Source: Candidatus Saccharimonadota bacterium (GTDB lineage: Bacteria; Patescibacteriota; Saccharimonadia; Saccharimonadales; JAGQNJ01). Taken from it: a DNA stretch of 64,000 nt. The position numbers and the translations under genes were made by a program. Below are positions 31,708 to 62,955 of the stretch, piece after piece; the stretch's first letter is position 1, and each line of letters starts with the position of its first letter. The notes below the pieces were generated by a model. That model was not told where the DNA came from and ran no database searches. It was given only the letters and a program-made list of their open reading frames with translations. The DNA lies in NCBI GenBank assembly GCA_036826295.1, contig DAISWO010000001.1, forward strand, positions 18,068 through 82,067, in the 5' to 3' direction.

Positions 31708-33211
31708 TGTTTTCTATTATATCCTTATTCTCACCTTTTGCTAATGTCCATAACGACGCAGTAATTAACGCTAATCCAGTCAGAATCGCTACTAGCACAA
31801 TATATAATAACAACCCATTAAAGCCATTTTGGTTTAGCCCCTTAATGATTACGTTATCAACACCGCCCAGTGAAAAATCTTTTTTTACCAGCATCCAAGA
31901 CAGATTAATAATTACCAGGCATATGCCTAAACCAACTACACAAGAAACTAATAGCCCTCTTAGCTTCTTTATGCTAAGTAGCCCATAACACATCAACAGA
32001 CCGACAGGCAATAACGAAGGTATTACATAGCGGACATTCATTGCTCCGTATCCTGTGGCATGAATTATTTGTTGAATCCACAATAGTGCCACCTGAAATG
32101 AGAACATCATAACAACAAATATTTCTTTATTGTTAAGATTCCTGCGTTTTCTAAATGCCCAGACTCCGGCTAATCCAACAGAGCCAACAAAAACAATTAC
32201 CGATAGTTTTTTATTTGAAATTTGTTTACTAAAGTAAACGTCTGCAAACTTCCACGAATCCCCATACAAATTATCGGCTAGTAAAGTCCAGGTTCTAGTG
32301 TTAGAGACTACCGAACCTAGCGGTCTATACTCTCTCCCTTGGGCCTTCACCCAATCTTGAGGACCAGACCTATACCAGTTGCCACTAATTGTCTGATTTC
32401 TATGATAGAACCATCCGATACCGGATAGAACAACTACGACTATGACTATGATCGCGGTCAGACTCTGTTGCAGTCTTTTCCGAAAGTTTTTGTTTGAATG
32501 TAGCCATGTTCCAACTAACACAGCAAAAAGGCTTGGAATCATAGTCGCTAAAAAAGTTGCCCTCGAAGACATTCCAATCAAAGAAACTATCGCGAGCCCT
32601 ACTATTAATCTAGTGTTCGGGCCTTTTAATATGATGAGCCCGGAAAGTGTCATGCTTACTACCGAGGCCAAAAGCACTAGGATATCGTTCATTATTAGAG
32701 ACGATATCTTTATGAATGGCACAATCGAAATAATCAAGGCTGGAAGCGCAACAGCAAACTGAGCCTTCTTTTCTCCCCCAAAGACCCAGCCAGCCCAAGA
32801 AAGAGCAACCACTGATAATAATGCGACTAGTAGAGTTATAAATCTAGCGCTGAAAATAGCTCTGTTAAAGTGTCCTTTACTGAAATTGTAGCCTATAGTC
32901 GGTGCGATTAGAGTGTAGTACAGTGGTGGATGTTGCGATACAAATTGTACGTTCCTGCGGGGAATAAATGGCGCAAGAGTACCTTCCTTAAATTTTGGTA
33001 AGCGACCATTATATACTTGCCAGGCATAATCAATATGTCCAACAGAATCTCCACCTAAATATTTATAAGGTATAGTTGATAAATATAGTCCGCCAATAGA
33101 TACGAGACACAGGATAACTCCACTCAAACCCAATACTACCCTTCTGTCTACATTTTTGATCCAGTCCGTATTACTGATATTACTAATTCTTCGGTGGAGT
33201 CTAAATTTCAT
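31688..33211 (-). CDS. polytopic membrane protein, putative ArnT/PMT-like GT-C glycosyltransferase
   Basis: 507 aa with more than 11 TM helices. The first periplasmic loop (LGGDSVGHIDYAWQVYNGRLP) resembles the aspartate-containing loop of ArnT/PMT_2 enzymes. The family call is tentative. Confidence 0.5.
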   Translation of the reverse strand: MKFRLHRRISNISNTDWIKNVDRRVVLGLSGVILCLVSIGGLYLSTIPYKYLGGDSVGHIDYAWQVYNGRLPKFKEGTLAPFIPRRNVQFVSQHPPLYYTLIAPTIGYNFSKGHFNRAIFSARFITLLVALLSVVALSWAGWVFGGEKKAQFAVALPALIISIVPFIKISSLIMNDILVLLASVVSMTLSGLIILKGPNTRLIVGLAIVSLIGMSSRATFLATMIPSLFAVLVGTWLHSNKNFRKRLQQSLTAIIVIVVVVLSGIGWFYHRNQTISGNWYRSGPQDWVKAQGREYRPLGSVVSNTRTWTLLADNLYGDSWKFADVYFSKQISNKKLSVIVFVGSVGLAGVWAFRKRRNLNNKEIFVVMMFSFQVALLWIQQIIHATGYGAMNVRYVIPSLLPVGLLMCYGLLSIKKLRGLLVSCVVGLGICLVIINLSWMLVKKDFSLGGVDNVIIKGLNQNGFNGLLLYIVLVAILTGLALITASLWTLAKGENKDIIENIEKLTK

Positions 33212-33885: not shown

Positions 33886-35628
33886 ATGCGTTTAAGATTG
33901 CCTAAAAGAAACTTCCTCTTAGCGTTATTCGTCCTTTTTATTACTAGTATGGTGTTTGTACAGGCACAGACAGAGACCACCGCAAGCGCATTATCTGGCA
34001 GTCAGTTTAATAGGGGTAATATAATTAGTGATTCACTATTTTACAGAGAGTCAAGCATGTCTGTATCTAGTATTCAAAGCTTCTTAAACCGTAAAGTTCC
34101 GGTTTGTGATACAAACGGTTCAGAGATGCACAGTACCGGCGTCACTCGGGCAGAATACGGACGGTCGAAAGGCGTACCCCCTCCATACCGTTGTTTAAAG
34201 TCGCGACTTTTGTCCACACAGTCAAAAAAAGCGTCTACCGGCCTGTGTAAGGCTTTATCTGCAAAAACTGGTCAGACTGCAGCGAAGATAATTTACAGTG
34301 TGTCCAAGGCTTGCGGTATAGACAGTAAGGTTTTACTGGTCATGCTTCAAAAAGAACAAGCGTTAATTACAGATGAATGGCCATGGCCGAACCAATACCG
34401 TATAGCAATGGGTTACGGATGCCCTGATACGGCGCCTTGTGATACACAATATTATGGGTTTTTTAATCAGGTTTACAATGCTGCTAGCCAAATGAAACGA
34501 TATGCCAAAAGCCCAAGCTCATTTAACTATCGATCAGGCAGAACCAATTATATTCAGTACAACCCTAACGCTTCTTGCGGCGGAAGAAATGTGTACATAG
34601 AGAATAAAGCAACTGCTGGGCTGTATAACTACACCCCTTATACACCCAACGCTGCAACCCTAGCCGCTGACTTCGGTGAGGAAGCGCCCTGTGGTGCTTA
34701 CGGTAATAAGAATTTCTGGTGGTACTACAATACATGGTTTGATAGCCCCCAAATTACTCAGAACTATTCCCTAATTGAGTGTAGTGGAGAGAAGTATTTG
34801 GTAGAGCGTTTTATAAAGATGAAAAGGCCGCTTACGGCTGACGCAATTGCAGCCTGGGGATTTGAAGAAGATGAATTTGTCGACAACAGTTATCGGTGTG
34901 TTTATACATCCTACGCAATCCCACTTAACTGGCTGGTTAGATCTAGGGCTACTAAGCAATTATACATAACCGATTCGCAGAGTCAGTGGAAACTTCAAAG
35001 TCTATCTATTGCGCGAGCTTGGGGTCTAGATGATTTATATAACAATTATTCTGCGGTTCCACAGCTTCAAGGAGCAACCCTTAAAGACTTAGCAATTTTC
35101 ACATCTACACCACGATTAACTAAGTCGGCTAATACTGGCAAGGTTTACCTCATGGACCAGGGAATTTTACACCACATAAAAGGTACGTTGACTGGTTCTG
35201 TTGACTCATCCAGCCTATCTCTAGTTCGTGGTTACGATTCAGTCCCGATGGCAACTTTCTCAGGATCACTCCTGAGTGATTTAAAAGACGCTAATAGCGC
35301 GATAGATAACTCAATTAACGCAGGATTCAGTAGCGGCGGTAAATTCTATGCATTTGATCACGGAAAGATCAGATGGATAAAGCCTAGCTACTATCCAGGA
35401 AGATGGGAGGACATCGACACATTGACAGGACCTAGCCTACACCCTGATTTTATTAGCGTATCTGTGCAGGCAGCACCTCTTGCCCACGGATTTAGAAGAG
35501 ACGGCACATATTACTACGTTGGCGCTAATGGAGAAATTACAACGTCAACAAACCAAACACAAGCCCGACAATGGGGTGGAGACACAACTCCAATAATTAC
35601 TTACTTATTGCGCAGCAAGCTCCTTTAA
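33886..35628 (+). CDS. secreted hypothetical protein (signal peptide, Cys-rich N-domain)
   Basis: Signal peptide (LLALFVLFITSMVFVQAQT) and multiple paired Cys. No catalytic motif recognised. Confidence 0.5.
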   Translation: MRLRLPKRNFLLALFVLFITSMVFVQAQTETTASALSGSQFNRGNIISDSLFYRESSMSVSSIQSFLNRKVPVCDTNGSEMHSTGVTRAEYGRSKGVPPPYRCLKSRLLSTQSKKASTGLCKALSAKTGQTAAKIIYSVSKACGIDSKVLLVMLQKEQALITDEWPWPNQYRIAMGYGCPDTAPCDTQYYGFFNQVYNAASQMKRYAKSPSSFNYRSGRTNYIQYNPNASCGGRNVYIENKATAGLYNYTPYTPNAATLAADFGEEAPCGAYGNKNFWWYYNTWFDSPQITQNYSLIECSGEKYLVERFIKMKRPLTADAIAAWGFEEDEFVDNSYRCVYTSYAIPLNWLVRSRATKQLYITDSQSQWKLQSLSIARAWGLDDLYNNYSAVPQLQGATLKDLAIFTSTPRLTKSANTGKVYLMDQGILHHIKGTLTGSVDSSSLSLVRGYDSVPMATFSGSLLSDLKDANSAIDNSINAGFSSGGKFYAFDHGKIRWIKPSYYPGRWEDIDTLTGPSLHPDFISVSVQAAPLAHGFRRDGTYYYVGANGEITTSTNQTQARQWGGDTTPIITYLLRSKLL

Positions 35629-46449: not shown

Positions 46450-46683
46450 ATGAGCAGTAACGATACTAAAACCACACTTTATCTGAGCCCAAACGTACGT
46501 CGAGCGTTAAAAAAACGCGTCATAGACACCAACCAAACGATGTCTGAATACGTTAATCGAGCTGTGGCATTTGCTATCGCAGAAGATCTTGAAGATATAG
46601 AGGCAATAGAAGAACGTCGAAATGAACCGACAGAATCACTAGATAATTTTTTAGAATCACTGAAAAAAGATGGCCTTATATAG
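46450..46683 (+). CDS. type II antitoxin (RelB/DinJ/ParD-like)
   Basis: 77 aa; acidic C-terminus. Overlaps the downstream RelE/ParE-like gene by 14 nt. Confidence 0.55.
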   Translation: MSSNDTKTTLYLSPNVRRALKKRVIDTNQTMSEYVNRAVAFAIAEDLEDIEAIEERRNEPTESLDNFLESLKKDGLI

Positions 46684-46933
46684 GGTTGAGATAAATAGGC
46701 GGGTTAGGAAGAAAGACCTCCCCGCCATACCAGCAAAATCTAGAGCAAGAATTGTGCTCCGTATAAAAAAATTAGCTCAAGATCCGTACCCGACAGATTC
46801 AATCCAACTAAAAGGGCGCAACGAACGACGCATCAGACAAGGTGATTATAGGATCCTTTATTTGGTGCAAGAAGATATTGTGACTGTATTCGTCATAAAA
46901 GTTGGGCACCGAAAAGAAATTTATCGAAAATAG
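46670..46933 (+). CDS. RelE/ParE-family toxin
   Basis: 87 aa with a conserved C-terminus (DYRILYLVQEDIVTVFVIKVGHRKEIY). Confidence 0.7.
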   Translation: MALYRVEINRRVRKKDLPAIPAKSRARIVLRIKKLAQDPYPTDSIQLKGRNERRIRQGDYRILYLVQEDIVTVFVIKVGHRKEIYRK

Positions 46934-49292: not shown

Positions 49293-50648
49293 GTGCAGGA
49301 TAATCTGTGGCAAGCGGTTTTAGGAGAGATCGAGATGTCTGTCTCTCAAGGAAATTTTGCAACTTGGTTTAAAAACACCCATCTGCTAGAACATTCGGAA
49401 AGCGAAGTTGTAATTGGGGTGCCTAACATCTTTATCAAACAACAGTTAGAGCGAAAGTTTAACGATTTGTTGTCTGACGTACTGTCCAAGAATGGGTTAT
49501 CTAGCGCCGTTATTACATATAAAATTCACTCCCCTGCAAAACTCCACAACACCACCGATTACGACGACCCGGTAATTGTGAGGACTAGTGGTGGCTCGGC
49601 AAAAAGTCAGAGCGCCTTGGCCCACAGCTATCGTAGGGGACTAAATGAAAAATATACTTTCGATACTTTTATTGTAGGATCGGGCAACGAGCTAGCCTAT
49701 GCAACCTGTCAGGCCATTGCCGCACTCCCGGGCAAAAAATATAATCCGGTTTTTTTGTACGGCGGGGTTGGAATAGGCAAAACCCACCTTGCAGAAGCTG
49801 TTGGCAACGAAGTTGTGGCCAATAATCCCGATGCCAAGGTCATTTATGTTAGCAGTGAGCAGTTTGTTCAAGAATTTTTAGATGCTATTAGATACAAGAA
49901 GAATACTGACTTTGCTGGCTATTATCGTTCGGCTGACGTATTAATTGTTGACGACATTCAGTTCATTGCTGGTAAAGAAAAGACTCAAGAAGAATTTTTT
50001 CATACTTTTAATGCCCTTCATCAGGCTAACAAACAAATTATTATAACCAGCGATATGGCACCTAAAGACGTGCCAACACTAGAAGACCGGTTGCGATCGA
50101 GGTTCTCTATGGGTATGAGCGTCGATATGCAAATCCCTGATTTTGAGACACGTTGTGCAATCGTACAGACAAAAGCCGAAGCTCAATCTTTCGAGCTATC
50201 TCAACCAGTCGTCGAAGTACTAGCAGATAACGTTAGGACAAACATTAGGGAGCTAGAAGGAGCACTAAACCAACTTGTAGCAATGTGTGAGATGAAAGGC
50301 GTCGAGCCCGACGTAGAGCTCGCAAAATCAGTTATTGGAGCAAGTAGATCAAGAGCAAAACATATATCCTCTAAATCAGTTATTGATAAAACTGCTAAGT
50401 ACTTCGGCATATCTATGGACGATATTATGAGCCCGAAACGCGATAAAGATATTGTTATGCCAAGGCAAATATCGATGTTTTTACTGCGGAGCGAACTGCA
50501 CTTAAGCTTTCCTAAGATTGCAAGAGAACTTGGTCGAAAAGACCACACCACCGCCATACACTCAGTTGATAAGGTTGAAAAAATATTAAGTAATGACTCA
50601 TCACTACAGGCCGCTATTAATGAAATCAGGGAGAGAATCTATGCTTAA
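49293..50648 (+). CDS. dnaA: chromosomal replication initiator protein DnaA
   Basis: AAA+ Walker A LYGGVGIGKTHL, Walker B LIVDDIQF and a C-terminal HTH (ARELGRKDHTTAIHSV). Confidence 0.95.
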   Translation: MQDNLWQAVLGEIEMSVSQGNFATWFKNTHLLEHSESEVVIGVPNIFIKQQLERKFNDLLSDVLSKNGLSSAVITYKIHSPAKLHNTTDYDDPVIVRTSGGSAKSQSALAHSYRRGLNEKYTFDTFIVGSGNELAYATCQAIAALPGKKYNPVFLYGGVGIGKTHLAEAVGNEVVANNPDAKVIYVSSEQFVQEFLDAIRYKKNTDFAGYYRSADVLIVDDIQFIAGKEKTQEEFFHTFNALHQANKQIIITSDMAPKDVPTLEDRLRSRFSMGMSVDMQIPDFETRCAIVQTKAEAQSFELSQPVVEVLADNVRTNIRELEGALNQLVAMCEMKGVEPDVELAKSVIGASRSRAKHISSKSVIDKTAKYFGISMDDIMSPKRDKDIVMPRQISMFLLRSELHLSFPKIARELGRKDHTTAIHSVDKVEKILSNDSSLQAAINEIRERIYA

Positions 50649-50899
50649 ATTTGTTATTTTGGCTGTGCAAAGACTGACTCAAAGCTGTGCAGAAGCCTGT
50701 GTAAAGAGCTTTGAAAAGCCTGTGATTGTGAGTGTTGTTAATTACACCATCCACAAAATCGTAGGGTTTTACGGGGACTTATTAGACCTTTATAAACAAG
50801 CCATAATGGCGAAACAACAGGTTGAAAAAAATCTTATACACATTATCTACAGGCCTTATAACAACAACATTCTAAGTATTTAAAAAAGGAGTTATTATT
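50649..50899. promoter_or_regulatory. dnaA-dnaN intergenic region with DnaA-box-like elements and four CTGTG-N-AAAG-type direct repeats
   Basis: Near-boxes ccATCCACA (50748-50756) and TTATCTACA (50833-50841). Repeats gctgtgcaaag / gctgtgcagaag / cctgtgtaaagag / cctgtgattgtg between 50661 and 50730. AAGGAG RBS for dnaN at 50886-50891. Confidence 0.45.
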
Positions 50900-52007: not shown

Positions 52008-53072
52008 GTGATGATTACAAGTATTAGGCTTCAGAATTTTAGGTCGTATAAAGATAGCGCCTTTGAGTTTGAGTCTGGCACTAATATTATTGTTGGCCCA
52101 AACGCTAGCGGTAAGACCAACCTATTAGAGTCTGTTTACTATGTTTGTAGCATGGGAGCTTTTCGTTCGTCAGACCACCACAACATACAGACCGGCAAAA
52201 ACTGGGCAAGGATTGACGCCACTACTGACGATAATCAAAGACGGACCCTAAAACTAACCGAAGAGAATGGTCGAGTTAATAAAAACTTTGAGATTGATGA
52301 AGTAGTTAAAAAACGGCCAACAGCTAAAGAATCTATCCCAGTAGTATTGTTTGAGCCCAACCAACTATATGAATTAGTTACCTCCCCAGAAGAGCGCCGA
52401 AGTTTTATTGATAGTCTAGCGTGCCAAATCTATCCAGAGAATACAGTGGCGATCAGTAGTTATAAGCGGGCCTTATCACAACGTAATAGACTATTAAAAA
52501 TGGGGCGCAAGGACGCAGAGCAGTCGATTTTTGCTTGGAATATAAGGCTATCGGAGTTTGCCGAGACCATCGTTACTAGACGCCTAGAGCTTATAGAAGA
52601 GCTTAATAAAACCCTAGCTGAAAACTACACAGAGATTGCTGGCGACAAGTATCTGCTAATTGTAGGCTATCAGTCAAAAATAGCTAGCGCGTCTAACTAC
52701 GCCACTAGGTTGCTTCAGGCGCTAGAACAAAACCTAGAAAAAGATTTAGCGCGAGGCTTTACTTCTGTTGGACCACACAGAGACGACCTTTTACTAGAGC
52801 TTAATAACAATGATGTTCGTAGCTTTGCATCCAGAGGCGAGACTCGCACCGCCATACTCGCCTTAAAAAAATGCGAGACTACACTACTCGAACAAAAAAC
52901 AGGAAAAAAACCTATTTTACTATTTGATGACGTGTTTAGTGAACTGGATGGAAAAAGACGAAAACTATTAACCGGATTTTTGAGCACCAATCAAACACTT
53001 ATCACTACAACCGACGCCGACATTATCGATAAATCCTATGCCCAAAAAACCCAGCTGATCAAGTTAAAGTGA
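52008..53072 (+). CDS. recF: DNA replication and repair protein RecF
   Basis: Walker A GPNASGKTNLLE, signature-like region and Walker B LLFDDVFSELD. TGA stop. Confidence 0.9.
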   Translation: MMITSIRLQNFRSYKDSAFEFESGTNIIVGPNASGKTNLLESVYYVCSMGAFRSSDHHNIQTGKNWARIDATTDDNQRRTLKLTEENGRVNKNFEIDEVVKKRPTAKESIPVVLFEPNQLYELVTSPEERRSFIDSLACQIYPENTVAISSYKRALSQRNRLLKMGRKDAEQSIFAWNIRLSEFAETIVTRRLELIEELNKTLAENYTEIAGDKYLLIVGYQSKIASASNYATRLLQALEQNLEKDLARGFTSVGPHRDDLLLELNNNDVRSFASRGETRTAILALKKCETTLLEQKTGKKPILLFDDVFSELDGKRRKLLTGFLSTNQTLITTTDADIIDKSYAQKTQLIKLK

Positions 53073-54398
53073 GCCCTCTTGCCTCTCGATCATTACCCAT
53101 GTTTTATTCAGTTGATTAACGTCACAGACACAGGTATCTTTTAAAATACCAACAGTCTTACTTACAATATTTTTCGTTTTATTGTTATCTGCAGTCATTA
53201 CAACCGAGCTGTTCATAATACTATAGTCAAATGTGTATTGATCGTGTCTGACGGGCACCTTAGGCAGATTGTAACTTTTAACATTATTAATAATATCTTT
53301 ATCCGAATATACTACCATACGGTTGTTATTGGTTAATGATAGTAATATCAAAGGATTCTTTGAAGCAACAATTATTTTTGATACTGGATCGATTATCTTC
53401 GAACCAGAATGATCTATTTCAACAATTTGTTTCTCGCCGTTATTCAGGTCGTATATTTCAACTTTATCAGGCTTAGAAATTTTATTAAACGTAACGATAT
53501 GACCGTTATAGGTATCAGAATAGCCTTCGATAGGCGTGTAAGATTTTTCTTCACCTGTTACTAAATCCCGTATTTTTATGTCGTGGTTAGACCCCTTTTC
53601 TTCATTATGCTCTACTACGCCACCTTCGTCTCCAGAGATGGATTCATTTATTGGAGAGTATATTAATTTGTTTGTATGTTTGTCTAAAGTAACCCCAATA
53701 GCACTATTTATAATTTTTTTAATTGACGATCCATCATGCTCATAGACAGCGCCCGCATAGTCAGTAAGGTATATTCTTTCCCCGACAGAGCCAATAATTT
53801 TCCTTGCCGCTATATCATTAACAAGCGAGCGATACTTCCCTGAATCCTCCTTAATCAACATATCTACCTTTTCCCCAGACGACAATAAAAAAACAATACC
53901 TTTTTTGGTTAGAATTCCATCTATTACAGAATTATATTTGGGAGGAAACGCAGCTTTAATAGAATTGCTAGTTATTAAAAACCAAGCTTGTTTGTTGTAT
54001 CTAGGCGGTTCACTACCACTTAGGTAGTTGTTCAATAGTTGGCTGTTAGGCGGGTAATAGTAGGATCTAACTAGGAGTTTATTATCTAAACCTGAAACTT
54101 TGTCAACATTATATAGAGGAAAGTCGTCGGTGAGTAGCTTGGTATTTAAAAAATCTTTATCATTAGCAAGATTCAACACAGCACTAGAAGAGCCAGTAAA
54201 GAATCCTAATTCTTTTGAATCTTTTGAATAATCAAAGTTGTCGATTCTCGCAATGTTTGTTGCTGCAATATCACTAGAACGCAATCTATAATCATCAACG
54301 TCCTCGCTCTTCCTCAATAAAGATACCAAAATAAGCAATATACACATAAATGTTAATAGTATTGATACTAAAATTACCACTCTTTTTTTATTCATCAA
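53064..54398 (-). CDS. membrane-anchored extracellular hypothetical protein (last gene of the T4SS-like operon)
   Basis: N-terminal TM (VVILVSILLTFMCILLILVSLL), then roughly 400 aa of predicted extracellular, beta-rich sequence. Function unknown. Confidence 0.45.
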   Translation of the reverse strand: MMNKKRVVILVSILLTFMCILLILVSLLRKSEDVDDYRLRSSDIAATNIARIDNFDYSKDSKELGFFTGSSSAVLNLANDKDFLNTKLLTDDFPLYNVDKVSGLDNKLLVRSYYYPPNSQLLNNYLSGSEPPRYNKQAWFLITSNSIKAAFPPKYNSVIDGILTKKGIVFLLSSGEKVDMLIKEDSGKYRSLVNDIAARKIIGSVGERIYLTDYAGAVYEHDGSSIKKIINSAIGVTLDKHTNKLIYSPINESISGDEGGVVEHNEEKGSNHDIKIRDLVTGEEKSYTPIEGYSDTYNGHIVTFNKISKPDKVEIYDLNNGEKQIVEIDHSGSKIIDPVSKIIVASKNPLILLSLTNNNRMVVYSDKDIINNVKSYNLPKVPVRHDQYTFDYSIMNSSVVMTADNNKTKNIVSKTVGILKDTCVCDVNQLNKTWVMIERQEGSL

Positions 54399-54407
54399 AC
54401 TTCCTCC

Positions 54408-56102
54408 TTAATACCAATTAAAAGCATGCGAGTGTTCAAGAGCACGACATGGCGTTTGATATCTACCTGCAATATAGTCTAGGCCCCAGGTTATCTGGGT
54501 TCGTGGATTAGTACGCCAGTCAGGGCCTGCAGTCGCCATTTTCCCACCAGGCTTAGATTGAGGCAAACCATAAGCGTCATCCTCTTCTTCGGTTATGGTT
54601 TCGCTTCCATTAAGAGATCCGTCTCCGTTGGTGTCGTTATTGCCTTCAGCGTCATTGATTGCAAGATGATTCCAGCTAGACTCTCTGGTCCATAGCTCTA
54701 ACAAACAACCCCACTCTGACCCGGTCCAACCCCTTTCTGCAGCCATAGACTCGCCAAGTTTTTTATTTTCATCTGGCGTACCACCACTTCCACCATATTG
54801 TGGGCTCCCGCAATTATCCACGTTAGTAAACCCACCAGTTTTTACAGCCTCAATAATTTTATTTAGGTATGTGTCTCCAACATCACTTTTTCTACCTGGG
54901 CTAATTAGGTGATGTGACAATACTCCCTTTAGATCACCCACATTAGTGTCGGTCTCCATCCCATATTTTTGGATAATATACGATACTGTTTTAGCAACAG
55001 CAGCTGCCTGGACAGGGTTATTATTAATCTCTTGTTCTGCTGTTTCAACCGTCCCATCACTACCTGCGGCAATTTCTATACCAATTGTTTTGCTATTGGC
55101 GTTTGAAGCGTGAGCAGTTAGGGTTGCTAGATCATCCACTAATTGATATACCGTTCCCGATCCATCGATGTATAACTGAACCGACAGCCCCCTGCCACCA
55201 ATAATAGAAATAAAATCTTCTACACTAGTGTTCGGAGATCCGCCGGTCCAGTGCAGAACTACACCTGTTGGCTGTATGGGTGGTCCAGAGAAAGGAGCTG
55301 GCGATATCTTTTGGATAAAATCTCCTGATACTTCTCCGTTAGTTTGAGGCGCGCTCGTGTCGATGGTGGCCGTAGTACCTGTTGATCGTGTTGCTGGTGC
55401 TTCGCCAACCTCGCCAGCCAACCACTTAGATTTCTTATCGTAACCAGCATCGGTATGATGCACACCATCTTCAAGGTAAGGATACTTTTCGGGATTACTA
55501 GTGACCTCTTCCTCCCAGTTCAGTATGGTATATTCAAGGTCTTCAGACCGGCTTTCGATCAATCGGTTTACCTCGTCGTTTCCTAAAAATGAAGGGTCAA
55601 TAAACGCACCATCTTTAACATGTACATTTACCCAGTAGACTTTAGCAGTGGGCGCTTTATCCTTAATTTTTTCAATTAACTCAGGGATTTTTTGTTCAAG
55701 ATCGGTTTCAGGGTTTGTGCCTAGGGCTACTACGATCGCATCACTTTCGGCGACTGTGTCTTTATCTTCCTCGATCTTAGGTAATGAGTCTCCAATATTG
55801 AACCCATTAGTAGCTTGAATATCAGGACTACCCCAACCTTTGTCTTCTAGTTTCGAAACTAGACTGCCCTTTTCTCGCATCCCTACGGTTAACGAGTCAC
55901 CAATCATATATATATTTGCACCCAAATCTGATGCGTCTTCTTCACATTCGTTGTCTATATCAAACCTAAGGCTCCCCCCGTCGATAACTTGTTTTTGTTC
56001 CGTACTTAAAGCTATTGCGACGTTTGATGCGCCGGAAACATAATTGAAGAATAAAACCCCAAGGATTAGCAGTGTTGATATTCTCAAAAATAACCTATTC
56101 AT
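54408..56102 (-). CDS. secreted trimodular cell-wall hydrolase: SGNH/GDSL esterase + amidase_2 (N-acetylmuramoyl-L-alanine amidase/PGRP) + SLT-like lytic transglycosylase
   Basis: Signal peptide MNRLFLRISTLLILGVLFF. GDSL block IYMIGDSLTVGM and SGNH block V of the same esterase, DGVHHTDAGY. Amidase_2-like region VVLHWTGGSPN...SVQLYIDGSGTVYQLVDD...IGIEIAAG. C-terminal WGCLLELWTRESSWN...AYGLPQS matches the E-S...GLMQ-type transglycosylase motif. Start set at the ATG 2 nt after the upstream stop (TAG-TA-ATG); the track ORF begins 30 nt earlier inside the upstream gene. Confidence 0.7.
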   Translation of the reverse strand: MNRLFLRISTLLILGVLFFNYVSGASNVAIALSTEQKQVIDGGSLRFDIDNECEEDASDLGANIYMIGDSLTVGMREKGSLVSKLEDKGWGSPDIQATNGFNIGDSLPKIEEDKDTVAESDAIVVALGTNPETDLEQKIPELIEKIKDKAPTAKVYWVNVHVKDGAFIDPSFLGNDEVNRLIESRSEDLEYTILNWEEEVTSNPEKYPYLEDGVHHTDAGYDKKSKWLAGEVGEAPATRSTGTTATIDTSAPQTNGEVSGDFIQKISPAPFSGPPIQPTGVVLHWTGGSPNTSVEDFISIIGGRGLSVQLYIDGSGTVYQLVDDLATLTAHASNANSKTIGIEIAAGSDGTVETAEQEINNNPVQAAAVAKTVSYIIQKYGMETDTNVGDLKGVLSHHLISPGRKSDVGDTYLNKIIEAVKTGGFTNVDNCGSPQYGGSGGTPDENKKLGESMAAERGWTGSEWGCLLELWTRESSWNHLAINDAEGNNDTNGDGSLNGSETITEEEDDAYGLPQSKPGGKMATAGPDWRTNPRTQITWGLDYIAGRYQTPCRALEHSHAFNWY

Positions 56103-56104
56103 TA

Positions 56105-59011
56105 CTATCTCCCATTTACCGACCAGTGCCAAGGTTCGCTCGGCAGATTAAAGAACCCATAGGTTGCAGCATTTGCGGACAACCATATATAGCATGCGGT
56201 CCCACGCGATCGGCAATTATCGAAGTCAATAGCTAAACCTCTTTCATGATTAGATGTGCCGGGTATTGCAGTCGGGACCCTGCAAGATGATGGCGATGCG
56301 TTATATATGTCCGGACATCCGTTTATTATGCGTAACTGAATTTGTCTAGCGTTGCTTCTCCAGCAAGAACCAGTCAATGTCACTCCATCAGCCGCCGCCG
56401 CCGCGATCATAGCGTTAGCATTTGCGGCTATACTCTTATGACAACCCGAACTGAGCCCAGTAACCGGTTCAATATCTGCTTCGGTAACAACTCCGTCTGG
56501 AAGAGGACCATTAGCCCCTGGTGTCGAACTTGATTTGCTCTGGTCTGGTAATCCTAATTCATCGCATGCGGATTCGTCGGCGCCCTCATAGCACACGGCT
56601 GATTTTGCGGTAATTGTGTCGGAGAGGTAGAAGCGATATTTTTTTAGCTTTATTTTTTCGGTCTCGTTAATACCAACACCGGCGCATTTCTCTGGTATGT
56701 CTTTATAATTAACTGCTTCAGTGGTTTGGATTTTTCCTGTTGTGCTGATTGTGGTCTTAAAACACTTTTCGCCGTACTTTCTGTTCATTTCCTTCAAAAG
56801 TTCAAAATTATTCTTTTCCATTTCTTTGGCTATGTCGTAAGGGTTCTCAAAAGTCTCATCTCTTTGTTCGTCTAGGCTGAAGCCGTATTCTGGGAAGCCA
56901 TAGTCGTAGTCAACTGATGCAGCTTTTGTCTTGCCGCCGAAGATATTGCCAAAATTAGTGAATATATTGCTGAAGTTCTTTAGTGGTGCTTGTAGGCCAT
57001 AAGACAGAGTTGATGAGGTTGCAAAATAATTCGGGTTATTAAACACTGATGAGGCGAATAACGAGTTAGTTTCTTTAGGGTCTAAATAGCGGGCGTATAG
57101 ACTCTTGGTCTTCATGTCGTAGCGCTCTAACTCTTTGCGCTTATAGTCTAGGGCAATTTCTTCTTCAGGCTGTAGCTCTCTTCCGCCAAAACTCAGAGCA
57201 TTATCATTAGCATTTAATCGATTCCCAAAGTTAACGCAGTTACCCCACTGCGGACCATCGGCACATTGCAGTGCCGCCCCCGCCAACCAATTAACAAGCG
57301 AATCTACATAATCGGATCCTAGTACGCCCGCTCCAATAAATATAGCGTTCACTGTGGCTGAAGCTGCGGCTGCCGATGCTCCTCCAGAAATGAATGCAAC
57401 GACCCCGTCAAGGACATCGGAAACGCCTATACAGGCACTACCCACGCAAGCATTCAGATCTATCAATACATCACAAGCTGTCTGGCCTGTTGGAAGGGCA
57501 TTGATAAGGTCATTAATAACCGTAAAAAGTGGTGGATTCTCTTTACCGGGTTTAGAACTGGCTGGTAAATCTGCTGGTTTAACTCGCTGCCCCTCATTTT
57601 CTCCTTTGGTGGCAGTTCGTTCACCGATTTGATCTTGACCGAGTTCTGCCTGGATACTATCTGCGGAAAAGGCGCTAAGCTTACCTATGTCAGTATCGCC
57701 CATAAATCTAGTAAACAATGCACCCATTTCGTCTGAGGTAACGTCTTGATCACCGAACTGAACTTGAGAACCTAAGGCTAGGCCATCAAGACCAATTCTC
57801 ATTAGAGGAATAACAAGTTCCGCCTGTCGGATAGCTTCCATAGAGCCACCGATCTGATCAATGTTACAGATGAGCTCATAGAGGCCCACTGCACCAACCG
57901 TTCCCGCTACAGCACCAATTATTTTACCTTTAACTCCTGATGGTGTATCTGCATCCAGGCCATCGGGGGCGTTCCGACGAATATTATCTCTTGTATCGGC
58001 GTCTATTTGGTCTTGAGATGGGGGTGGTTTGGCTCTATCGGGGGCTGATACCCCAGTTTTTACACGCTCGTCATGATGCTGTTTTACGGATTTGGTGTAG
58101 TCAACTATTGACTCACCGGCTTCTCGATAAAAGTTTTGTAATGGGTGAAACCCCCCAGCGTAGCGCTTTTTAGACAGCCTGTGGGTAATAGCGTTTGAGA
58201 TACCATCTTCGCTTATTGCTATTCTTAAGTCGTCAGTCATAGTACGGATTCCGGTTCGACTGCCAAACCCCCTCGGCGCATCGATCTGCTTTAATCTGCC
58301 GTCTCCTGAACTACTGTAACCTTTGGCTTTTAATTCGTCGAAAGCACTTTTGCCTTTAGGCGTATCAGTATCAAAAGTAAAACTAGTCAGAACTTTATTA
58401 CTATAATTTGGGGTAATACCAAGATCTTTCAGTCTGGTGTCAACCTTTTTAGCGTATTTATTGCCAATTGCACCGAGGTTATTGTCTATACCGTTACCAC
58501 GAGCATATCGCCATAAGCGAGTTAGACGTCCGTCTTGCATATTGGCGTTATTCTCGTGGTGAAACGGCCCCATAAGACTTGCCATATGAACAAATGCTAG
58601 TGGACCACTGGCGGTCATTAATATCCCTAGGATACCCCCGATGCCTAAGATTCCTGCAACGCCACCAGCGGCTTGTTTTTTAGTAATCTTTCCACGAAAA
58701 CGCCCGCTTTTTTTGCCATTGCTAGTGTCTTTAAAGAATCCTGAATTGTTATTATTATCATCTCCGTGTGAGATTGCCTTATTGTCGAGTAATTTACTTG
58801 CTTCGTCTTTTCCGGCTCGGTAGGGAGAGCTGTCGTAGCCTAATTTTTCGCGCTTGGCTATATCTTCTGCGGCCCCGTTGTGAGCCTCACGGTCCATAGC
58901 GTCTTCTTGGTCTTTATGGATGCCCATTAATTCTCGGAGTTTATCGTCAGAGATATTATTATCGCCGGCAAGGCTTTTGTCCTCAGTTTTTTCTGGATCG
59001 TAGACTGACAT
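56105..59011 (-). CDS. large polytopic membrane protein with C-terminal M15 (VanY-like) peptidoglycan peptidase domain; possible VirB6-like T4SS channel component
   Basis: 968 aa with several Gly/Ala-rich TM segments (AGGVAGILGIGGILGILMTASGPLAF, KIIGAVAGTVGAVGLYELI, VVAFISGGASAAAASATVNAIFIGAGVLG). The C-terminus carries VanY/M15 zinc motifs (GTSNHERGLAIDFD and SEPWHW). Confidence 0.6.
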   Translation of the reverse strand: MSVYDPEKTEDKSLAGDNNISDDKLRELMGIHKDQEDAMDREAHNGAAEDIAKREKLGYDSSPYRAGKDEASKLLDNKAISHGDDNNNNSGFFKDTSNGKKSGRFRGKITKKQAAGGVAGILGIGGILGILMTASGPLAFVHMASLMGPFHHENNANMQDGRLTRLWRYARGNGIDNNLGAIGNKYAKKVDTRLKDLGITPNYSNKVLTSFTFDTDTPKGKSAFDELKAKGYSSSGDGRLKQIDAPRGFGSRTGIRTMTDDLRIAISEDGISNAITHRLSKKRYAGGFHPLQNFYREAGESIVDYTKSVKQHHDERVKTGVSAPDRAKPPPSQDQIDADTRDNIRRNAPDGLDADTPSGVKGKIIGAVAGTVGAVGLYELICNIDQIGGSMEAIRQAELVIPLMRIGLDGLALGSQVQFGDQDVTSDEMGALFTRFMGDTDIGKLSAFSADSIQAELGQDQIGERTATKGENEGQRVKPADLPASSKPGKENPPLFTVINDLINALPTGQTACDVLIDLNACVGSACIGVSDVLDGVVAFISGGASAAAASATVNAIFIGAGVLGSDYVDSLVNWLAGAALQCADGPQWGNCVNFGNRLNANDNALSFGGRELQPEEEIALDYKRKELERYDMKTKSLYARYLDPKETNSLFASSVFNNPNYFATSSTLSYGLQAPLKNFSNIFTNFGNIFGGKTKAASVDYDYGFPEYGFSLDEQRDETFENPYDIAKEMEKNNFELLKEMNRKYGEKCFKTTISTTGKIQTTEAVNYKDIPEKCAGVGINETEKIKLKKYRFYLSDTITAKSAVCYEGADESACDELGLPDQSKSSSTPGANGPLPDGVVTEADIEPVTGLSSGCHKSIAANANAMIAAAAADGVTLTGSCWRSNARQIQLRIINGCPDIYNASPSSCRVPTAIPGTSNHERGLAIDFDNCRSRGTACYIWLSANAATYGFFNLPSEPWHWSVNGR

Positions 59012-59048: not shown

Positions 59049-60977
59049 TTATATCGCAGGTGGAGTACTTATTGGACTTAAGTTGATATTGCCCTGACCG
59101 TCTTTAATAACTCCTTTGGAGTCAAGGTCTTGGATCTCTTCGGGGTTGGTGGTGATTAGGCTAGTCTCGGTATCACTGGCTGCAATCTGTATGTGCACAT
59201 GATTCTGACCGGCAAAGAACAAGCCTTGACCAATAGGAAACTGACTTAATCGCTTTGCCTCATTCTCGGTAAGCTTAAAGACGTCGGCCAGCATATCAAC
59301 TGCTGACGGAGACTGCTTTAGTAGCAGTTGCAGAGAAGCGTTGGCTACAATTGCCCGACCTAGACGTGATCCAATAAAATCTTCTACATCCTGAGTAATA
59401 GTGGTTATGCCCAAGTTATATTTTCGGGCCCGCTTAGCCAGAGAAAACATAAAGTTAGCAGAATCTTCATATCGCATTATCTGCCAAGCCTCATCAATAA
59501 TTAAGATACGTTTTTTCATGTCGGATTTGGTGATATTCCAAATATGGTTGAGCACGATATACATAGCTACAGGTCGGAGTTCGTCCTCTAGATCGCGAAC
59601 GTTAAAGACTACCATTTGGTTTTTCATCTCAATATTGGATTGCTGAGAGAATATGCCAGCAAATGTACCGCTAGTGTATTTTCGTAGGCGTTGTGCCAGC
59701 TGTGGGCCGGTGCCTCCCATGTGTAGCAGGGTATCGTACAAATCAGTAATGGTAGGCGGTATAGAATTATGGGTAAGTGGGTCTTGGGTTATTCCTGCCT
59801 TGGCATACGTTTCAATTAATGCGGCGTCTAAATCAGCCTCTTCGACTGGTGATAATGCTGGCGCTGATGTACCGCCACTAGATTGCGATGCTAGCATCTG
59901 AGCCTGCGCCCCACCCATCATCAATCTCAATAGCCCATGTAATGTTATTAGGTTGCTACGTAGTGCGTTATCGGCCTCGTCAGTATCAATGACTTTAGGC
60001 AAGTCGAACGGGTTGATTCGTGTATTAGAGTTTAAGCTTAGTCGGACATAGGCGCCAGCGACTGCTTCACACATCCTTTGGTATTCGTTCTCAGGATCAA
60101 CTATCACAATCTCTGTGCCAAACATCATAGAACGAAGTGCTTCTAGCTTAACGGCAAAAGATTTTCCGGCACCAGATTTTGCGAACACCACGGCGTTGCC
60201 GTTTTCTAGACTAAAGCGATCAAATATAACCAGTCCAGAGTTATGCATATTTATCCCATAAAGCACGCCGTCATCTTGGCTGAGGTCGGCGCTAGTGAAT
60301 GGGAAGCTGGTACTGGCAGCACCAGTGCTCATGTTACGCCTAATCTCTAGCTGATCGGTAAATTGAGGTACGGTACTAGCTAGCGCTTGCTCTTGTTGTG
60401 AAGTAGCGGGTTTTGAATAGACTAGTTGTTGGCCAAGCATAGACTCAACCTTATGTGCTATATACTCGAGCTCGTCTAGGCTATTGCCATAAATAGTAAA
60501 GTAAAAGCCAATCCTAAAAAAGCGCTCTTCGCCAACTTGGAGCTTGTCGCGAATTTCTTCAGCATCGGTAATTGCAGCTTGTTTGCCGGGGTCACGGACT
60601 CGGCCCTTTTCTTCGTCGATCTGAATTCCGGCTTCCATTTGCGATACTTTTTTACGCAGACTTTCCATAACTAGTCGGCTTTCAACAGGATAAATAAACA
60701 TTGAGATGTCGATTATCTCGTCAAGGTTGATTAGCCCACTGGTCCAGCCGGTAGTTAGTGAACGTGGATATCCAAAAACATAGTACGTGCGGGCAAAGCG
60801 ACTACCAATCTGAAAGTGAGTGCTACTCAGCTCTACCGAGCTTGGGGCGATAAAATCGCGAAGTGCAGTTACGCCCTTTCTATAAATTTCGCCGACTTCT
60901 TGCTCTTCGCGTCGGCGCTGAGCTTCAGCTAGCTCTTTAGGATCGGTAATGGCTTTTTTGCCGCTAAATAGACCCAT
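59049..60977 (-). CDS. VirB4-family type IV secretion ATPase (TraE/PrgJ/TcpF-like)
   Basis: VirB4 N-region ALRDFIAPSSVELSSTHFQIGSRFARTYYVFGYPRS, Walker A VVFAKSGAGKSFAV and Walker B ILIIDEAWQIM. About 640 aa, as in Gram-positive VirB4 homologs. Confidence 0.85.
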   Translation of the reverse strand: MGLFSGKKAITDPKELAEAQRRREEQEVGEIYRKGVTALRDFIAPSSVELSSTHFQIGSRFARTYYVFGYPRSLTTGWTSGLINLDEIIDISMFIYPVESRLVMESLRKKVSQMEAGIQIDEEKGRVRDPGKQAAITDAEEIRDKLQVGEERFFRIGFYFTIYGNSLDELEYIAHKVESMLGQQLVYSKPATSQQEQALASTVPQFTDQLEIRRNMSTGAASTSFPFTSADLSQDDGVLYGINMHNSGLVIFDRFSLENGNAVVFAKSGAGKSFAVKLEALRSMMFGTEIVIVDPENEYQRMCEAVAGAYVRLSLNSNTRINPFDLPKVIDTDEADNALRSNLITLHGLLRLMMGGAQAQMLASQSSGGTSAPALSPVEEADLDAALIETYAKAGITQDPLTHNSIPPTITDLYDTLLHMGGTGPQLAQRLRKYTSGTFAGIFSQQSNIEMKNQMVVFNVRDLEDELRPVAMYIVLNHIWNITKSDMKKRILIIDEAWQIMRYEDSANFMFSLAKRARKYNLGITTITQDVEDFIGSRLGRAIVANASLQLLLKQSPSAVDMLADVFKLTENEAKRLSQFPIGQGLFFAGQNHVHIQIAASDTETSLITTNPEEIQDLDSKGVIKDGQGNINLSPISTPPAI

Positions 60978-60979
60978 AT

Positions 60980-61840
60980 CTATAAATCCTGCTCGATACT
61001 AGGTTTTGGGGCGTGCCCCGGACCTTTTACGATTACTGGTGCGGACACATCATCAAAATTATGCAATTGCTGTCTAGTAGCGGTATCGGGGTTATAAAAG
61101 TCATAATACAGTTCGATTAATTCCTGCGTATCAAGAGGTACAGACTTTACTCCGCATTGTTCGAGACCTGCGATTACGGCTTGGATCCGGTTTCGAAGCT
61201 CATCTTTTGCTTCGGCAAGGACTTGCTCGGTAACCACCACCTGAGGTTGCTTTGATTTGTTAAGCATACTCGACAACCCGGTAAAAAAATTCTTACTCTG
61301 CGTTATGGCGCGTTTAACTGAGACATTAGAGAAGAATGGCACAACGATATAAAAATATTTGTCCATAATATTTGATTCGGTAGATAGGTCAGTAATGTAA
61401 TCGATATAATCATCCATCAATATACCGAGAAGCATGTTGTCTTCTTGGCTTCTTGTTTTTGCCAGCTTGTCTAGGTACGGACGGATATCGACTTTTTGTG
61501 ATCGGATAAAGATTTGAATATCAAAATATAGTGAGTTTAGAAATGCTTGATAACCAGCCTCCACCGATTCTTGTTCCCCGGCGCTCATTAAATCAAAGTT
61601 AATACTTTTTGCCATAACGACAGAGCGAAAAGATCCATCGTTCATGATAACAATGCCGTCACGGATCTCTGCAATCTGTAACATATTCTGTGTACTAGCT
61701 GGATTTGCCTTTGGCTTAGCCGGTTGTTGAGCTGGGGCTGGTGCGCGGGTCGCGGCTTTTGCAGGCTGAACTACGCCTTGTACTGGTGGCTGGGCTGTTT
61801 GGGTTGGTGTCTGGGGTGGTTGGTTCATATTAGGATTCAT
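60980..61840 (-). CDS. T4SS-associated protein with Pro/Gln-rich N-terminus (possibly a separately encoded VirB4 N-terminal-like domain)
   Basis: The stop TAG is followed by AT and then the VirB4 ATG (translational coupling). The region LQIAEIRDGIVIMNDGSFRSVVMAKSINFDLMSAGEQESVEAGYQAFLNSLYFDIQIF resembles the extreme N-terminus of long Gram-positive VirB4 proteins. The first roughly 50 aa are P/Q/A-rich. Confidence 0.4.
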   Translation of the reverse strand: MNPNMNQPPQTPTQTAQPPVQGVVQPAKAATRAPAPAQQPAKPKANPASTQNMLQIAEIRDGIVIMNDGSFRSVVMAKSINFDLMSAGEQESVEAGYQAFLNSLYFDIQIFIRSQKVDIRPYLDKLAKTRSQEDNMLLGILMDDYIDYITDLSTESNIMDKYFYIVVPFFSNVSVKRAITQSKNFFTGLSSMLNKSKQPQVVVTEQVLAEAKDELRNRIQAVIAGLEQCGVKSVPLDTQELIELYYDFYNPDTATRQQLHNFDDVSAPVIVKGPGHAPKPSIEQDL

Positions 61841-61986: not shown

Positions 61987-62955
61987 CTAATGTAGAGATA
62001 CGACTACCTCATCATCTGTATCACCGTTGCTAACTTCAGAGTCTTGCGTTACATCAATTTCTGAAGAAAGCTTACGCTTATTAACACCGTTAAGTATATC
62101 AGGAACTGCCGGTGGTGTCATCGGTTGTTTTGTTGTATTTTGCGAAGTGGTCTGTGTTGTCGTCTGTGGCGTTGCATATGCAGGGGTGTCTTGCCTTGCA
62201 GGGCTAGATTTCAAAATGATTCTTGGTGCCGGCGCAGATACTCTGGCTGGACTTGAGTTAGGTACTGAAGGCGTTACAAGATTAGGCGTAACGATTTGGT
62301 TGTTCTCAGCAATACTTTGCATGTTAGACAACAATTGCTGACGGCGGATTAACTCGGACTCATCAACCATGTTTGTTAGCTGGGCTGCAAGGGGATTGGA
62401 GGTTGAAGTGTTAAGCATATCAGCTGCCGGCTTAATTGCGGCTAAGGCGTCATCTTCGGGGGTTTTTTGGATCTCTAGTAACCGGTCGTTATTTTGCTGG
62501 TCCTCAAGTCGCCGGTTGCCGGGAACTACGTTTTTAACAATCCAGCCACGAGTATCCATAGTGTTGGCAAGTGTTTTGAGTCGGCTATTTACCTCTGATT
62601 TACTCAACCCATCAGAATAATGTTTTTCAATCTTTTTAGGCACAGTAACTTTTACTAGGTGTTCAATGCCCTCTTGGTCCCAAAGACGTTTTTTAGTGAA
62701 TAGAAAGAAGCGTACTTTTCCCAGTAGCCATATCTCTGATGATTGATCACGACCAAAAGGGGCGGCCAGCAGTAAAAAGAAAATTAGTGGAGGGATTAAC
62801 GGAATAGTCATAAACCATAAATTCTCCTTTATGAAAAAGAATCCTACAAAACCAATAGTTACAACTATCGACGCATAGATAAATTGACGCAGTGTAAATG
62901 GGCCTAGAAGTTTGTCTTCTGCCTCAATATCTTGGATTACTTTATACTCTGCCAT
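61987..62955 (-). CDS. PrgI-family (VirB3-like) T4SS membrane protein with long Thr/Gln/Pro-rich C-terminal extension
   Basis: N-terminus MAEYKVIQDIEAEDKLLGPFTLRQFIY followed by two TM helices matches the PrgI/VirB3 pattern (Y-x-IP-x-DI...GLTxRQ) as I recall it. Roughly 200 extra low-complexity C-terminal residues. Confidence 0.55.
   Translation of the reverse strand: MAEYKVIQDIEAEDKLLGPFTLRQFIYASIVVTIGFVGFFFIKENLWFMTIPLIPPLIFFLLLAAPFGRDQSSEIWLLGKVRFFLFTKKRLWDQEGIEHLVKVTVPKKIEKHYSDGLSKSEVNSRLKTLANTMDTRGWIVKNVVPGNRRLEDQQNNDRLLEIQKTPEDDALAAIKPAADMLNTSTSNPLAAQLTNMVDESELIRRQQLLSNMQSIAENNQIVTPNLVTPSVPNSSPARVSAPAPRIILKSSPARQDTPAYATPQTTTQTTSQNTTKQPMTPPAVPDILNGVNKRKLSSEIDVTQDSEVSNGDTDDEVVVSLH

Follow-up and report, generated by a model that had tools for sequence, protein, structure and literature searches.

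A predicted three-module wall hydrolase with an SGNH esterase domain in the type IV secretion operon of a Saccharibacteria genome

Results

A 64,000-nucleotide (64-kb) stretch of contig DAISWO010000001.1 from a Candidatus Saccharimonadota bacterium (this whole stretch is referred to as the window) contains an uninterrupted open reading frame (ORF), given as 54408–56132 on the minus strand in the window's ORF listing. An earlier note on this DNA had described its product as a secreted fusion of an SGNH esterase, an amidase and an SLT-like transglycosylase encoded by the whole frame. Here, we report on this gene, which encodes a tri-modular hydrolase of 564 residues and lies in a type IV secretion system (T4SS) operon. 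While the open frame is real, it runs on the minus strand and its start codon has to be moved. The likely start is the ATG at 56102 (56102–56100), which, together with the stop codon at 54408–54410, delimits a coding region at 54408–56102 (both codons read from the sequence). A TTG at 56132 was rejected as the start, because the ATG at 56102 has a Shine-Dalgarno-like GGGAGA 5 nucleotides upstream (56108–56113, minus strand) and matches public gene calls, in which the identical 564-residue product appears on six contigs. The upstream gene ends with a TAG at 56107–56105, and the hydrolase ATG is found 2 nucleotides beyond that stop codon. The location of GGGAGA within the last codons of the upstream gene suggests that translation of the hydrolase may be coupled to that of its neighbor.

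All motifs quoted in the earlier note were found in the translation, i.e. IYMIGDSLTVGM, with its GDSL at residues 68–71 of 564; DGVHHT (residues 212–217); VVLHWTGG and IGIEIAAG, containing H284 and E343, respectively; LWTRESSWN, containing E474-S475; and AYGLPQS (residues 510–516). Profile matches and an N-terminal hydrophobic segment also bear out the proposed layout of three separate enzymatic modules behind an export signal, and the Pfam and NCBIfam matches on which the predicted domains are based lie far beyond chance. Residue conservation was followed in an alignment of seven orthologues (A1), in a further alignment (A2) and in an alignment of 59 distant SGNH relatives (A4). AlphaFold2 models of the SGNH and C-terminal domains were confident, but built on shallow alignments.

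The N-terminus features two Arg residues, a 15-residue hydrophobic core and an AIA/LS site, and contains the sole strongly hydrophobic segment of the protein in a hydropathy scan. It fits a Sec signal peptide, predicted from the scan and from motif reading to comprise residues 1–31 (56010–56102, minus strand as for all parts of the gene) with cleavage at MNRLFLRISTLLILGVLFFNYVSGASNVAIA/LS.

An SGNH/GDSL esterase domain follows at residues ~60–239 (55386–55925), as delineated by a Lipase_GDSL_2 match (37.0 bits; Pfam cut-off 32.9), conserved sequence blocks and an SGNH-fold model. The catalytic Ser and His, on which the earlier assignment had turned, are present and conserved on alignment, along with the expected Gly, Asn and Asp. 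The GDS of block I (G68-D69-S70-L71) is invariant in A1, A2 and A4; at least 90% of the A2 sequences retain block II (G100, within ATNGFN); block III (G128-T129-N130) is invariant in A1 and A2, with an Asn that is at least 90% conserved in A4; and the His of block V (D212-G-V-H215) shows no variation in A1 and at least 90% conservation in A4, while the block V Asp is missing only from the degenerate P0006 in A1. Across the 59 distant relatives, the Ser, Gly, Asn and His are thus each at least 90% conserved. The module belongs to the SGNH superfamily, since its profile score exceeds the curated cut-off and the model adopts an SGNH fold. The model shows a single compact domain of the acetylesterase (CE3) type, in which neither a lid nor an additional lipid-binding element is visible; its end falls below 50 in the predicted local distance difference test (pLDDT). 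The closest solved structure is the C-terminal domain of OatA (OatA-C), the sole significant profile match in the PDB (E 1.8e-4).

The "Ape-type" label that the earlier note had attached to this domain could not be maintained. Ape1a/b proteins are distinguished by a ~100-residue CBM35 insertion directly after motif I (PMC1199599), whereas only ~30 residues separate block I (68–71) from block II (G100) in the present protein. As both the CBM insertion and an O-acetylpeptidoglycan (OAP; patA/patB/ape) cluster are missing, and with OatA-C as the nearest solved structure, membership in Ape1 was rejected. No pat or oat partner (MBOAT or AT3) was detected among the window ORFs scanned, in an incomplete scan with ~64 kb of the genome visible.

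A Ser/Thr/Ala-rich linker at residues ~240–276 (55275–55385), recognized by low pLDDT and poor conservation in A1, connects the SGNH domain to the second module. Its N-terminal half is poorly conserved, and it runs into a conserved IQKIxPAPFxG lead-in to the amidase. The second module, residues ~277–409 (54876–55274), is an Amidase_2 domain (N-acetylmuramoyl-L-alanine amidase of the AmpD/PGRP/T7-lysozyme type). The earlier amidase call stands, with PF01510 matching well above the curated cut-off (56.1 bits versus 26; E 6e-15; 127 of 131 profile positions covered) and H284 and E343 conserved. In addition, phage endolysin families of the PHROGs collection match this region. Residues H284, E343, H397/H398, K405 and D407 are invariant in the seven orthologues. 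We take H284, H397 (or H398) and D407 to be candidate Zn ligands, acting with E343 and K405, in the roles of their counterparts in AmpD and T7 lysozyme. Presumably, H284, E343, H397/H398, K405 and D407 correspond to AmpD H34, E116, H154, K162 and D164. As a PDB sequence search with the amidase domain gave chance-level matches only, the assignment rests on Pfam, PHROGs and the conserved residues.

The third module, residues ~443–564 (54411–54776), is a lysozyme-like, SLT-type glycan-cleaving domain, as judged by its match to NF052397 of NCBIfam (89.5 bits versus a cut-off of 40; E 1.5e-25), a fold model and conserved motifs. The latter comprise a Glu-Ser motif with the candidate catalytic E474, AYGLPQ (510–515) and WGLDY (539–543); in addition, Cys466 and Cys552 are conserved. 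The model adopts a lysozyme-like fold with the candidate catalytic Glu at the end of a helix. The earlier call of an SLT-like domain is thus upheld at the level of the fold, the conserved Glu-Ser and NF052397, but not by Pfam SLT (PF01464) itself, which remained below threshold (12.7 bits versus 21.3). An acidic insert of ~26 residues, DAEGNNDTNGDGSLNGSETITEEEDD (residues 484–509; 54576–54653), was delineated in A1 between the Glu-Ser and AYGLPQ motifs. It is rich in Asn, Asp and Gly and occurs in five of the seven orthologues, being absent from P0004 and P0005. We attribute the low Pfam score to this insert, since P0029, a 47%-identical homologue without it, scores above the cut-off (24.9 bits). 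The insert region of the model is fairly confident (block pLDDT 88–91). Its DxNxDG-like spacing is reminiscent of Ca-binding loops, for instance the EF-hand of MltB/Slt35.

The earlier note had also compared the protein to T4SS hydrolases, and an association with a T4SS is confirmed. The gene resides in an operon on the minus strand with genes for a PrgI-family (VirB3-like) protein (61987–62955; Pfam PrgI 3.3e-9), a TraC-like protein (60980–61840; weak Pfam TraC_F_IV match, PF26593 TraC-like in public gene calls) and a VirB4-like ATPase (59049–60977; Pfam P-loop_TraG 8e-28 and AAA_10). The hydrolase gene is located two genes downstream of VirB4; the genes are tightly spaced or overlap, and this arrangement is kept in eight related loci, which come from metagenome-assembled genomes of Candidatus Saccharibacteria/Saccharimonadales. 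A TrbL_3 (VirB6-like) gene is found further upstream on a public contig that carries the identical hydrolase. The gene between VirB4 and the hydrolase (56105–59011, minus strand) encodes a 968-residue protein with a C-terminal VanY/M15 peptidase domain, assigned by Pfam VanY (E 4e-10) and synteny. This VanY domain also matches a phage tape-measure family (phrog_16823; 6.5e-12), and the other ~850 residues of the protein have no family match.

On the other side of the hydrolase, a 443-residue protein with an N-terminal hydrophobic segment is encoded at 53064–54395 (minus strand); the gene starts 12 nucleotides past the hydrolase stop codon with an AAGGAGG ribosome-binding site in front. The protein has no match in Pfam, NCBIfam or PHROGs. 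It diverges quickly, with 58% identity in the related locus L007 and no match in L012 despite 97% identity of DnaA, and may be a hypervariable partner of the hydrolase. Beyond it lie recF, dnaN and dnaA on the opposite strand. The order PrgI, TraC-like, VirB4, VanY protein, hydrolase, unknown protein and recF-dnaN-dnaA is preserved in relatives down to 47% identity.

A T4SS cluster with a comparable layout has been studied in Southlakia epibionticum ML1, where SEML1_0006-0019 is essential for epibiotic growth (Wang et al. 2023, Cell; PMC10633639, PMC12102498). There, SEML1_0008 is VirB4, SEML1_0007 is an essential 1113-residue protein with a Hedgehog/DD-peptidase domain (PMC10633639, Table S2), and SEML1_0006 combines glucosaminidase, phage-tail lysozyme (PF18013) and Cys-protease domains and is essential in transposon sequencing (PMC10633639). 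No relaxase or coupling protein is recognizable in this operon (PMC10633639), and the Saccharibacteria T4SS has been presented as the first T4SS on which the life of its carrier bacterium was shown to depend (PMC12857230). Judged by its place in the gene order, the 968-residue VanY protein appears as the positional counterpart of SEML1_0007. The position of the hydrolase is that of SEML1_0006, such that both the position and its general role were already known.

What occupies this position varies. Full-length homologues show many architectures, and all five whose genomic context was examined lie at the same place in the operon. Module sets at the hydrolase position include SGNH, glucosaminidase and the same SLT-like C-terminal domain (P0015); SGNH, PF18013 lysozyme and M23 (P0032); SGNH, GH3 and PF18013 (P0022); SGNH and M23 (P0045); and Amidase_2 with the C-terminal domain only (P0027). 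Exchange extends to close relatives, as seen from amino acid identities to the window in tblastn comparisons. In L012, DnaA (97%), DnaN (89%) and YidC (92%) are highly similar, and the hydrolase shares only its SGNH part (57%). In L013, VirB4 (96%) and the TraC-like protein (89%) are conserved, and the position is filled by SGNH (62%), GH3 and PF18013. Genomes at 89–97% identity in DnaA/DnaN or VirB4 have either M23, SGNH and lysozyme or SGNH, GH3 and lysozyme in place of the window's trio. L007 (DnaA 90%) retains the same architecture, with identities of 67% for SGNH, 92% for the amidase and 88% for the C-terminal domain. The ATPase and the housekeeping flanks evolve far more slowly than the distal genes of the operon (VanY protein, hydrolase and 443-residue protein). 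The hydrolase position thus holds interchangeable sets of peptidoglycan-hydrolase modules, even between close relatives. The trio described in the earlier note is one among many sets that swap at a single conserved position, a wider pattern which that note had missed. It is a minority form, found in six clusters at 90% identity and in two of the 59 nearest SGNH relatives.

With the SGNH domain alone as query, a word-indexed search gave no homologues. Relatives of the module came from an exhaustive phmmer run over 1.84 billion cluster representatives, of which 566 matched at E ≤ 1e-3 and 131 at E ≤ 1e-10. Partner domains were counted with Pfam and NCBIfam in the best 59 of the 566 matches. Pfam recognized Lipase_GDSL_2 in 57 of these, accompanied by PF18013 (30), M23 (12), VanY (8), GH3 (7), C39_2 (4), glucosaminidase (2) and Amidase_2 (2), with single cases of Amidase_3, CHAP and M74; the NCBIfam C-terminal domain NF052397 is present in three. 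GH43, DUF346 and Exo_endo_phos, each found once, are the partners unrelated to peptidoglycan, and neither Acyl_transf_3 (PF01757) nor MBOAT occurs in any of the 59. Nearly all of the 59 contain peptidoglycan-hydrolase domains, and by its partner domains this SGNH clade is dedicated to peptidoglycan-hydrolase proteins. Fusions of SGNH to such hydrolases are common in Saccharibacteria, although no published description of them was found. In eight larger relatives that were scanned (1096–1296 residues), the SGNH module is positioned at ~815–1090, and in four of them, from other lineages (P0062, P0066, P0076 and P0080; 1204–1296 residues), it lies shortly ahead of VanY/M15. P0066 aligns with the 968-residue protein of the window across the VanY domain and a collinear middle segment. 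It thus seems that the SGNH module can relocate from one of these neighboring T4SS genes to the other.

Affinities outside the lineage differ between the modules. When the whole hydrolase was compared to phage and plasmid collections by tblastn, the C-terminal domain alone was matched. The SGNH and amidase parts had no counterpart in any phage or plasmid record, and these collections gave no indication that the whole fusion came from a phage or plasmid. The C-terminal domain matched 156 phage records, 147 of them from Streptomyces phages with endolysin/transglycosylase annotation, at 37–49% identity. It also matches actinobacterial replicons (Actinomyces, Streptomyces), with a G5-domain protein of Actinomyces oris on top (46.5%), and minor-tail and tape-measure lysin families of PHROGs. 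The SGNH model structurally resembles esterases of phage tail fibres and tailspikes. Cultivated Saccharibacteria grow on Actinobacteria (PMC10633639, PMC12857230), and these outside affinities are consistent with an enzyme aimed at an actinobacterial wall, a fit rather than a proof.

Elsewhere in the window, tRNA and Rfam scans of the 64 kb gave no matches. A small overlapping gene pair (46450–46683 and 46670–46933, plus strand) lies between genes for a GT4 glycosyltransferase and a KhpB/Jag-like protein. In public calls, the pair encodes a 77-residue protein with a weak PF22180 (RH3_dom) match and an 87-residue ParE-family toxin; L012 has the pair and L004 lacks it. Between dnaA and dnaN, at 50641–50883 (plus strand), public calls place a small gene for an 80-residue product that overlaps the end of dnaA and lacks a family match; a small ORF of 74–117 residues is called between dnaA and dnaN in L004, L014 and L015 as well. 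A large region for surface-polysaccharide biosynthesis (~10400–45000) encodes a Wzy_C ligase/polymerase, a Bac_transf priming transferase, several GT2/GT4 enzymes, GlmS, GlmM, a dTDP-glucose-dehydratase-like enzyme, UDP-glucose dehydrogenase, a pyruvyl transferase, a DegT aminotransferase and a DUF7657/DUF7654 protein. ORFs of 480–580 residues without family match in this region are located at 20782–22284, 30268–31707, 31688–33211 and 33886–35628.

Discussion

We suggest that the gene encodes a Sec-exported, three-module wall enzyme of the chromosomal, conjugation-type (Gram-positive-like) Saccharibacteria T4SS operon in which the SGNH module de-O-acylates wall glycan, a reading to which we assign a probability of roughly 0.55. 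Its parts carry different weight. We are highly confident that the protein is a three-module, T4SS-linked peptidoglycan hydrolase. A role of the SGNH module as a wall-glycan de-O-acylase appears probable, while a substrate that is specifically O-acetylated N-acetylmuramic acid (MurNAc) is a more tentative proposal, with somewhat less than an even chance. Whether the host wall is the main target we regard as evenly balanced.

In such an enzyme, the SGNH triad Ser70-His215-Asp212, with Gly100 and Asn130 forming the oxyanion hole, would strip an O-acyl group from wall glycan, the Zn-dependent Amidase_2 module would cut stem peptides off MurNAc and the lysozyme-like module would cleave the glycan strand via Glu474. 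Most likely, the SGNH module would attack MurNAc at its 6-O-acetyl group, whose removal would license the neighboring glycan cutter. A 6-O-acetyl group on MurNAc blocks lysozymes and lytic transglycosylases. We consider 6-O-acetyl-MurNAc the most economical substrate because this group blocks the usual partner enzymes of the module and because OatA-C handles the same group, with hydrolysis as the expected outcome. In OatA-type enzymes, the acetyl group is supplied by a fused AT3 membrane domain, whereas PatB obtains it from an MBOAT protein (PMC9487903); given these mechanisms, an exported SGNH domain without AT3 or MBOAT partner has no acetyl donor and should therefore hydrolyse rather than transfer. 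Local de-O-acetylation has been proposed to allow insertion of trans-envelope pores and flagella (Weadge et al. 2005; PMC1199599), and an esterase fused to hydrolases would directly implement this idea. De-O-acetylation of peptidoglycan is plausible in this light, and the earlier note's picture of a complete degrader of O-acetylated peptidoglycan remains an inference.

By analogy, and with the essential SEML1_0006 at the same position, the hydrolase would play the part of VirB1, PrgK, TraG (pIP501) or CwlT in the Saccharibacteria T4SS. It may open the actinobacterial host wall at the contact site, rather than only the wall of the epibiont itself. We favor the host wall because turnover of the modules outpaces that of the flanking genes, and because of the phage-lysin and actinobacterial affinities.

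Several points weigh against our proposal. The nearest solved relative of the SGNH module, OatA-C, is a transferase, and the sequence link to it is weak (E 1.8e-4); many generic acetylesterases score nearly as high as OatA-C, and phage tail SGNH esterases that target capsule or O-antigen resemble the module structurally. Many relatives combine SGNH with VanY or with no recognized domain and have no glycan cutter in the chain; coupling to a lysozyme-like domain is thus frequent, not obligatory. Host targeting is reached indirectly, via module turnover and phage-lysin affinities. To our knowledge, the characterized T4SS hydrolases (VirB1, PrgK, TraG of pIP501 and CwlT) all act on the donor's own wall. 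Finally, we found no data on peptidoglycan O-acetylation in Saccharibacteria or in their hosts, and no paper joining Saccharibacteria, peptidoglycan and O-acetylation.

An alternative that we rate as unlikely, though worth serious consideration, is that the hydrolase serves only the cell's own wall, as a VirB1/PrgK-type "space maker" for the T4SS channel or pilus, with the SGNH module removing own O-acetyl groups locally. VirB1, PrgK, TraG of pIP501 and CwlT are established to work in this manner (discussed in PMC12102498), the hydrolase gene is apparently translationally coupled inside the T4SS operon, and the proposal of Weadge et al. (2005; PMC1199599) for pores and flagella would apply equally to this case. 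However, genomes with 89–97% identical housekeeping or T4SS proteins differ in their module sets, although their own walls should hardly differ. Moreover, no AT3/OatA or MBOAT/PatA was seen in the incomplete scan of window ORFs, and the amidase and C-terminal modules are phage-lysin-like, tail-associated lysins included.

Somewhat less likely still, the SGNH module might act off peptidoglycan altogether, de-acylating a host capsule, wall polysaccharide or teichoic-acid-like glycan in the manner of SGNH esterases of phage tail fibres, or serving as a lipase/lysophospholipase on host lipids, which Saccharibacteria are unable to make. This possibility is at odds with the partners recognized in the 59 nearest relatives, which are peptidoglycan enzymes save for the single GH43, DUF346 and Exo_endo_phos cases, and with a peptidoglycan O-acetyl enzyme as the best match in both sequence and structure. 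The compact CE3-type domain, without lid or lipid-binding element in the model, likewise speaks against it.

It is improbable that the protein is a feeding enzyme that digests host peptidoglycan to provide the auxotrophic epibiont with amino sugars and amino acids, with its place in the T4SS operon reflecting co-regulation only. In some variants, the position includes a GH3 beta-N-acetylhexosaminidase (NagZ-like), which is exo-acting and of a kind typically seen in muropeptide catabolism, and Saccharibacteria rely on host-derived building blocks (PMC10633639). However, every relative examined shows tight coupling of the gene to T4SS structural genes, and the window encodes GlmS and GlmM, such that amino-sugar synthesis is not obviously missing. 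An O-acetyltransferase like OatA-C, modifying peptidoglycan instead of de-acetylating it, is very improbable and was rejected, since OatA and PatB types need an AT3 or MBOAT donor (PMC9487903), neither of which is found on the hydrolase or in any of the 59 nearest relatives, and the present domain is exported and soluble.

Beyond the proposed wall de-O-acylase, a bolder and rather doubtful view is that the post-VirB4 position holds a host-wall "can-opener", with modules matched to the wall chemistry of the actinobacterial host and an SGNH module acting in trans as a peptidoglycan de-O-acetylase that counters lysozyme resistance. If this were true, module swapping would be a determinant of host range, akin to the receptor-binding and lysin cassettes of phages. 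An esterase that strips host O-acetyl groups would account for the ability of an ultrasmall epibiont to break through lysozyme-resistant walls of Actinobacteria, and would represent a concrete, testable candidate for a determinant of host specificity. A single-chain enzyme active on O-acetylated peptidoglycan, if confirmed, would also be of interest for enzybiotic design. Irrespective of these views, the wall-hydrolase position of the Saccharibacteria T4SS is a rapidly shuffled cassette with a frequent esterase module (566 protein clusters).

Comparison with known systems

PrgK (pCF10), TraG (pIP501) and CwlT (ICEBs1) of Gram-positive conjugation systems are likewise exported, multi-module proteins that include an SLT/lysozyme-like domain and are encoded within a VirB4/PrgI/TraC-type cluster. 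They differ in composition, as the known Gram-positive T4SS hydrolases combine LytM, SLT and CHAP or muramidase and NlpC/P60, whereas SGNH, Amidase_2 and Apf/SLT-like modules are joined here. They also differ in setting from the present operon, which is chromosomal, adjacent to dnaA and, in a relative, devoid of a recognizable relaxase or coupling protein (PMC10633639). No T4SS hydrolase with an SGNH esterase is described in the searchable literature; neither PMC12102498 nor PMC12857230 mentions an esterase in a T4SS hydrolase, and no paper was found that links Saccharibacteria with SGNH in this context.

Among enzymes that act on peptidoglycan O-acetyl groups, OatA-C (S. aureus 6VJP/6WN9; S. 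pneumoniae 5UFY) shares the compact CE3-like SGNH fold and handles the MurNAc 6-O-acetyl group, but it is a transferase fed by a fused AT3 domain, which is lacking here and in the 59 nearest relatives. Ape1 of Neisseria and Campylobacter is not the best match in structure or sequence, and the SGNH module described here is, unlike Ape1, fused to the hydrolases that it would serve. The C-terminal ~120 residues are 37–49% identical to Apf C-terminal-like and actinobacterial or actinophage "transglycosylase SLT domain" proteins (NF052397, phrog_12661), with which they share the Glu-Ser, AYG(I/L)PQ, WGLxY and a terminal NWY. In contrast to those proteins, the present domain contains the ~26-residue acidic insert and is fused to an amidase and an esterase. 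Phage virion lysins and tail-fibre SGNH esterases similarly combine modules that strip the envelope and thereby breach a target cell from outside. PHROGs of endolysins, minor-tail and tape-measure proteins are matched by the amidase and C-terminal domains, while the SGNH domain is structurally like tail-fibre esterases; unlike the phage systems, the hydrolase is part of a cellular T4SS operon, with no phage genes nearby.

The closest counterpart is SEML1_0006, which also follows VirB4 and a DD-peptidase-domain protein of ~1000–1100 residues, lies near recF-dnaN-dnaA and combines three hydrolase modules, but has neither SGNH nor Amidase_2. The general role of the position is already published; what is new is the esterase module and the degree to which the cassette is shuffled.

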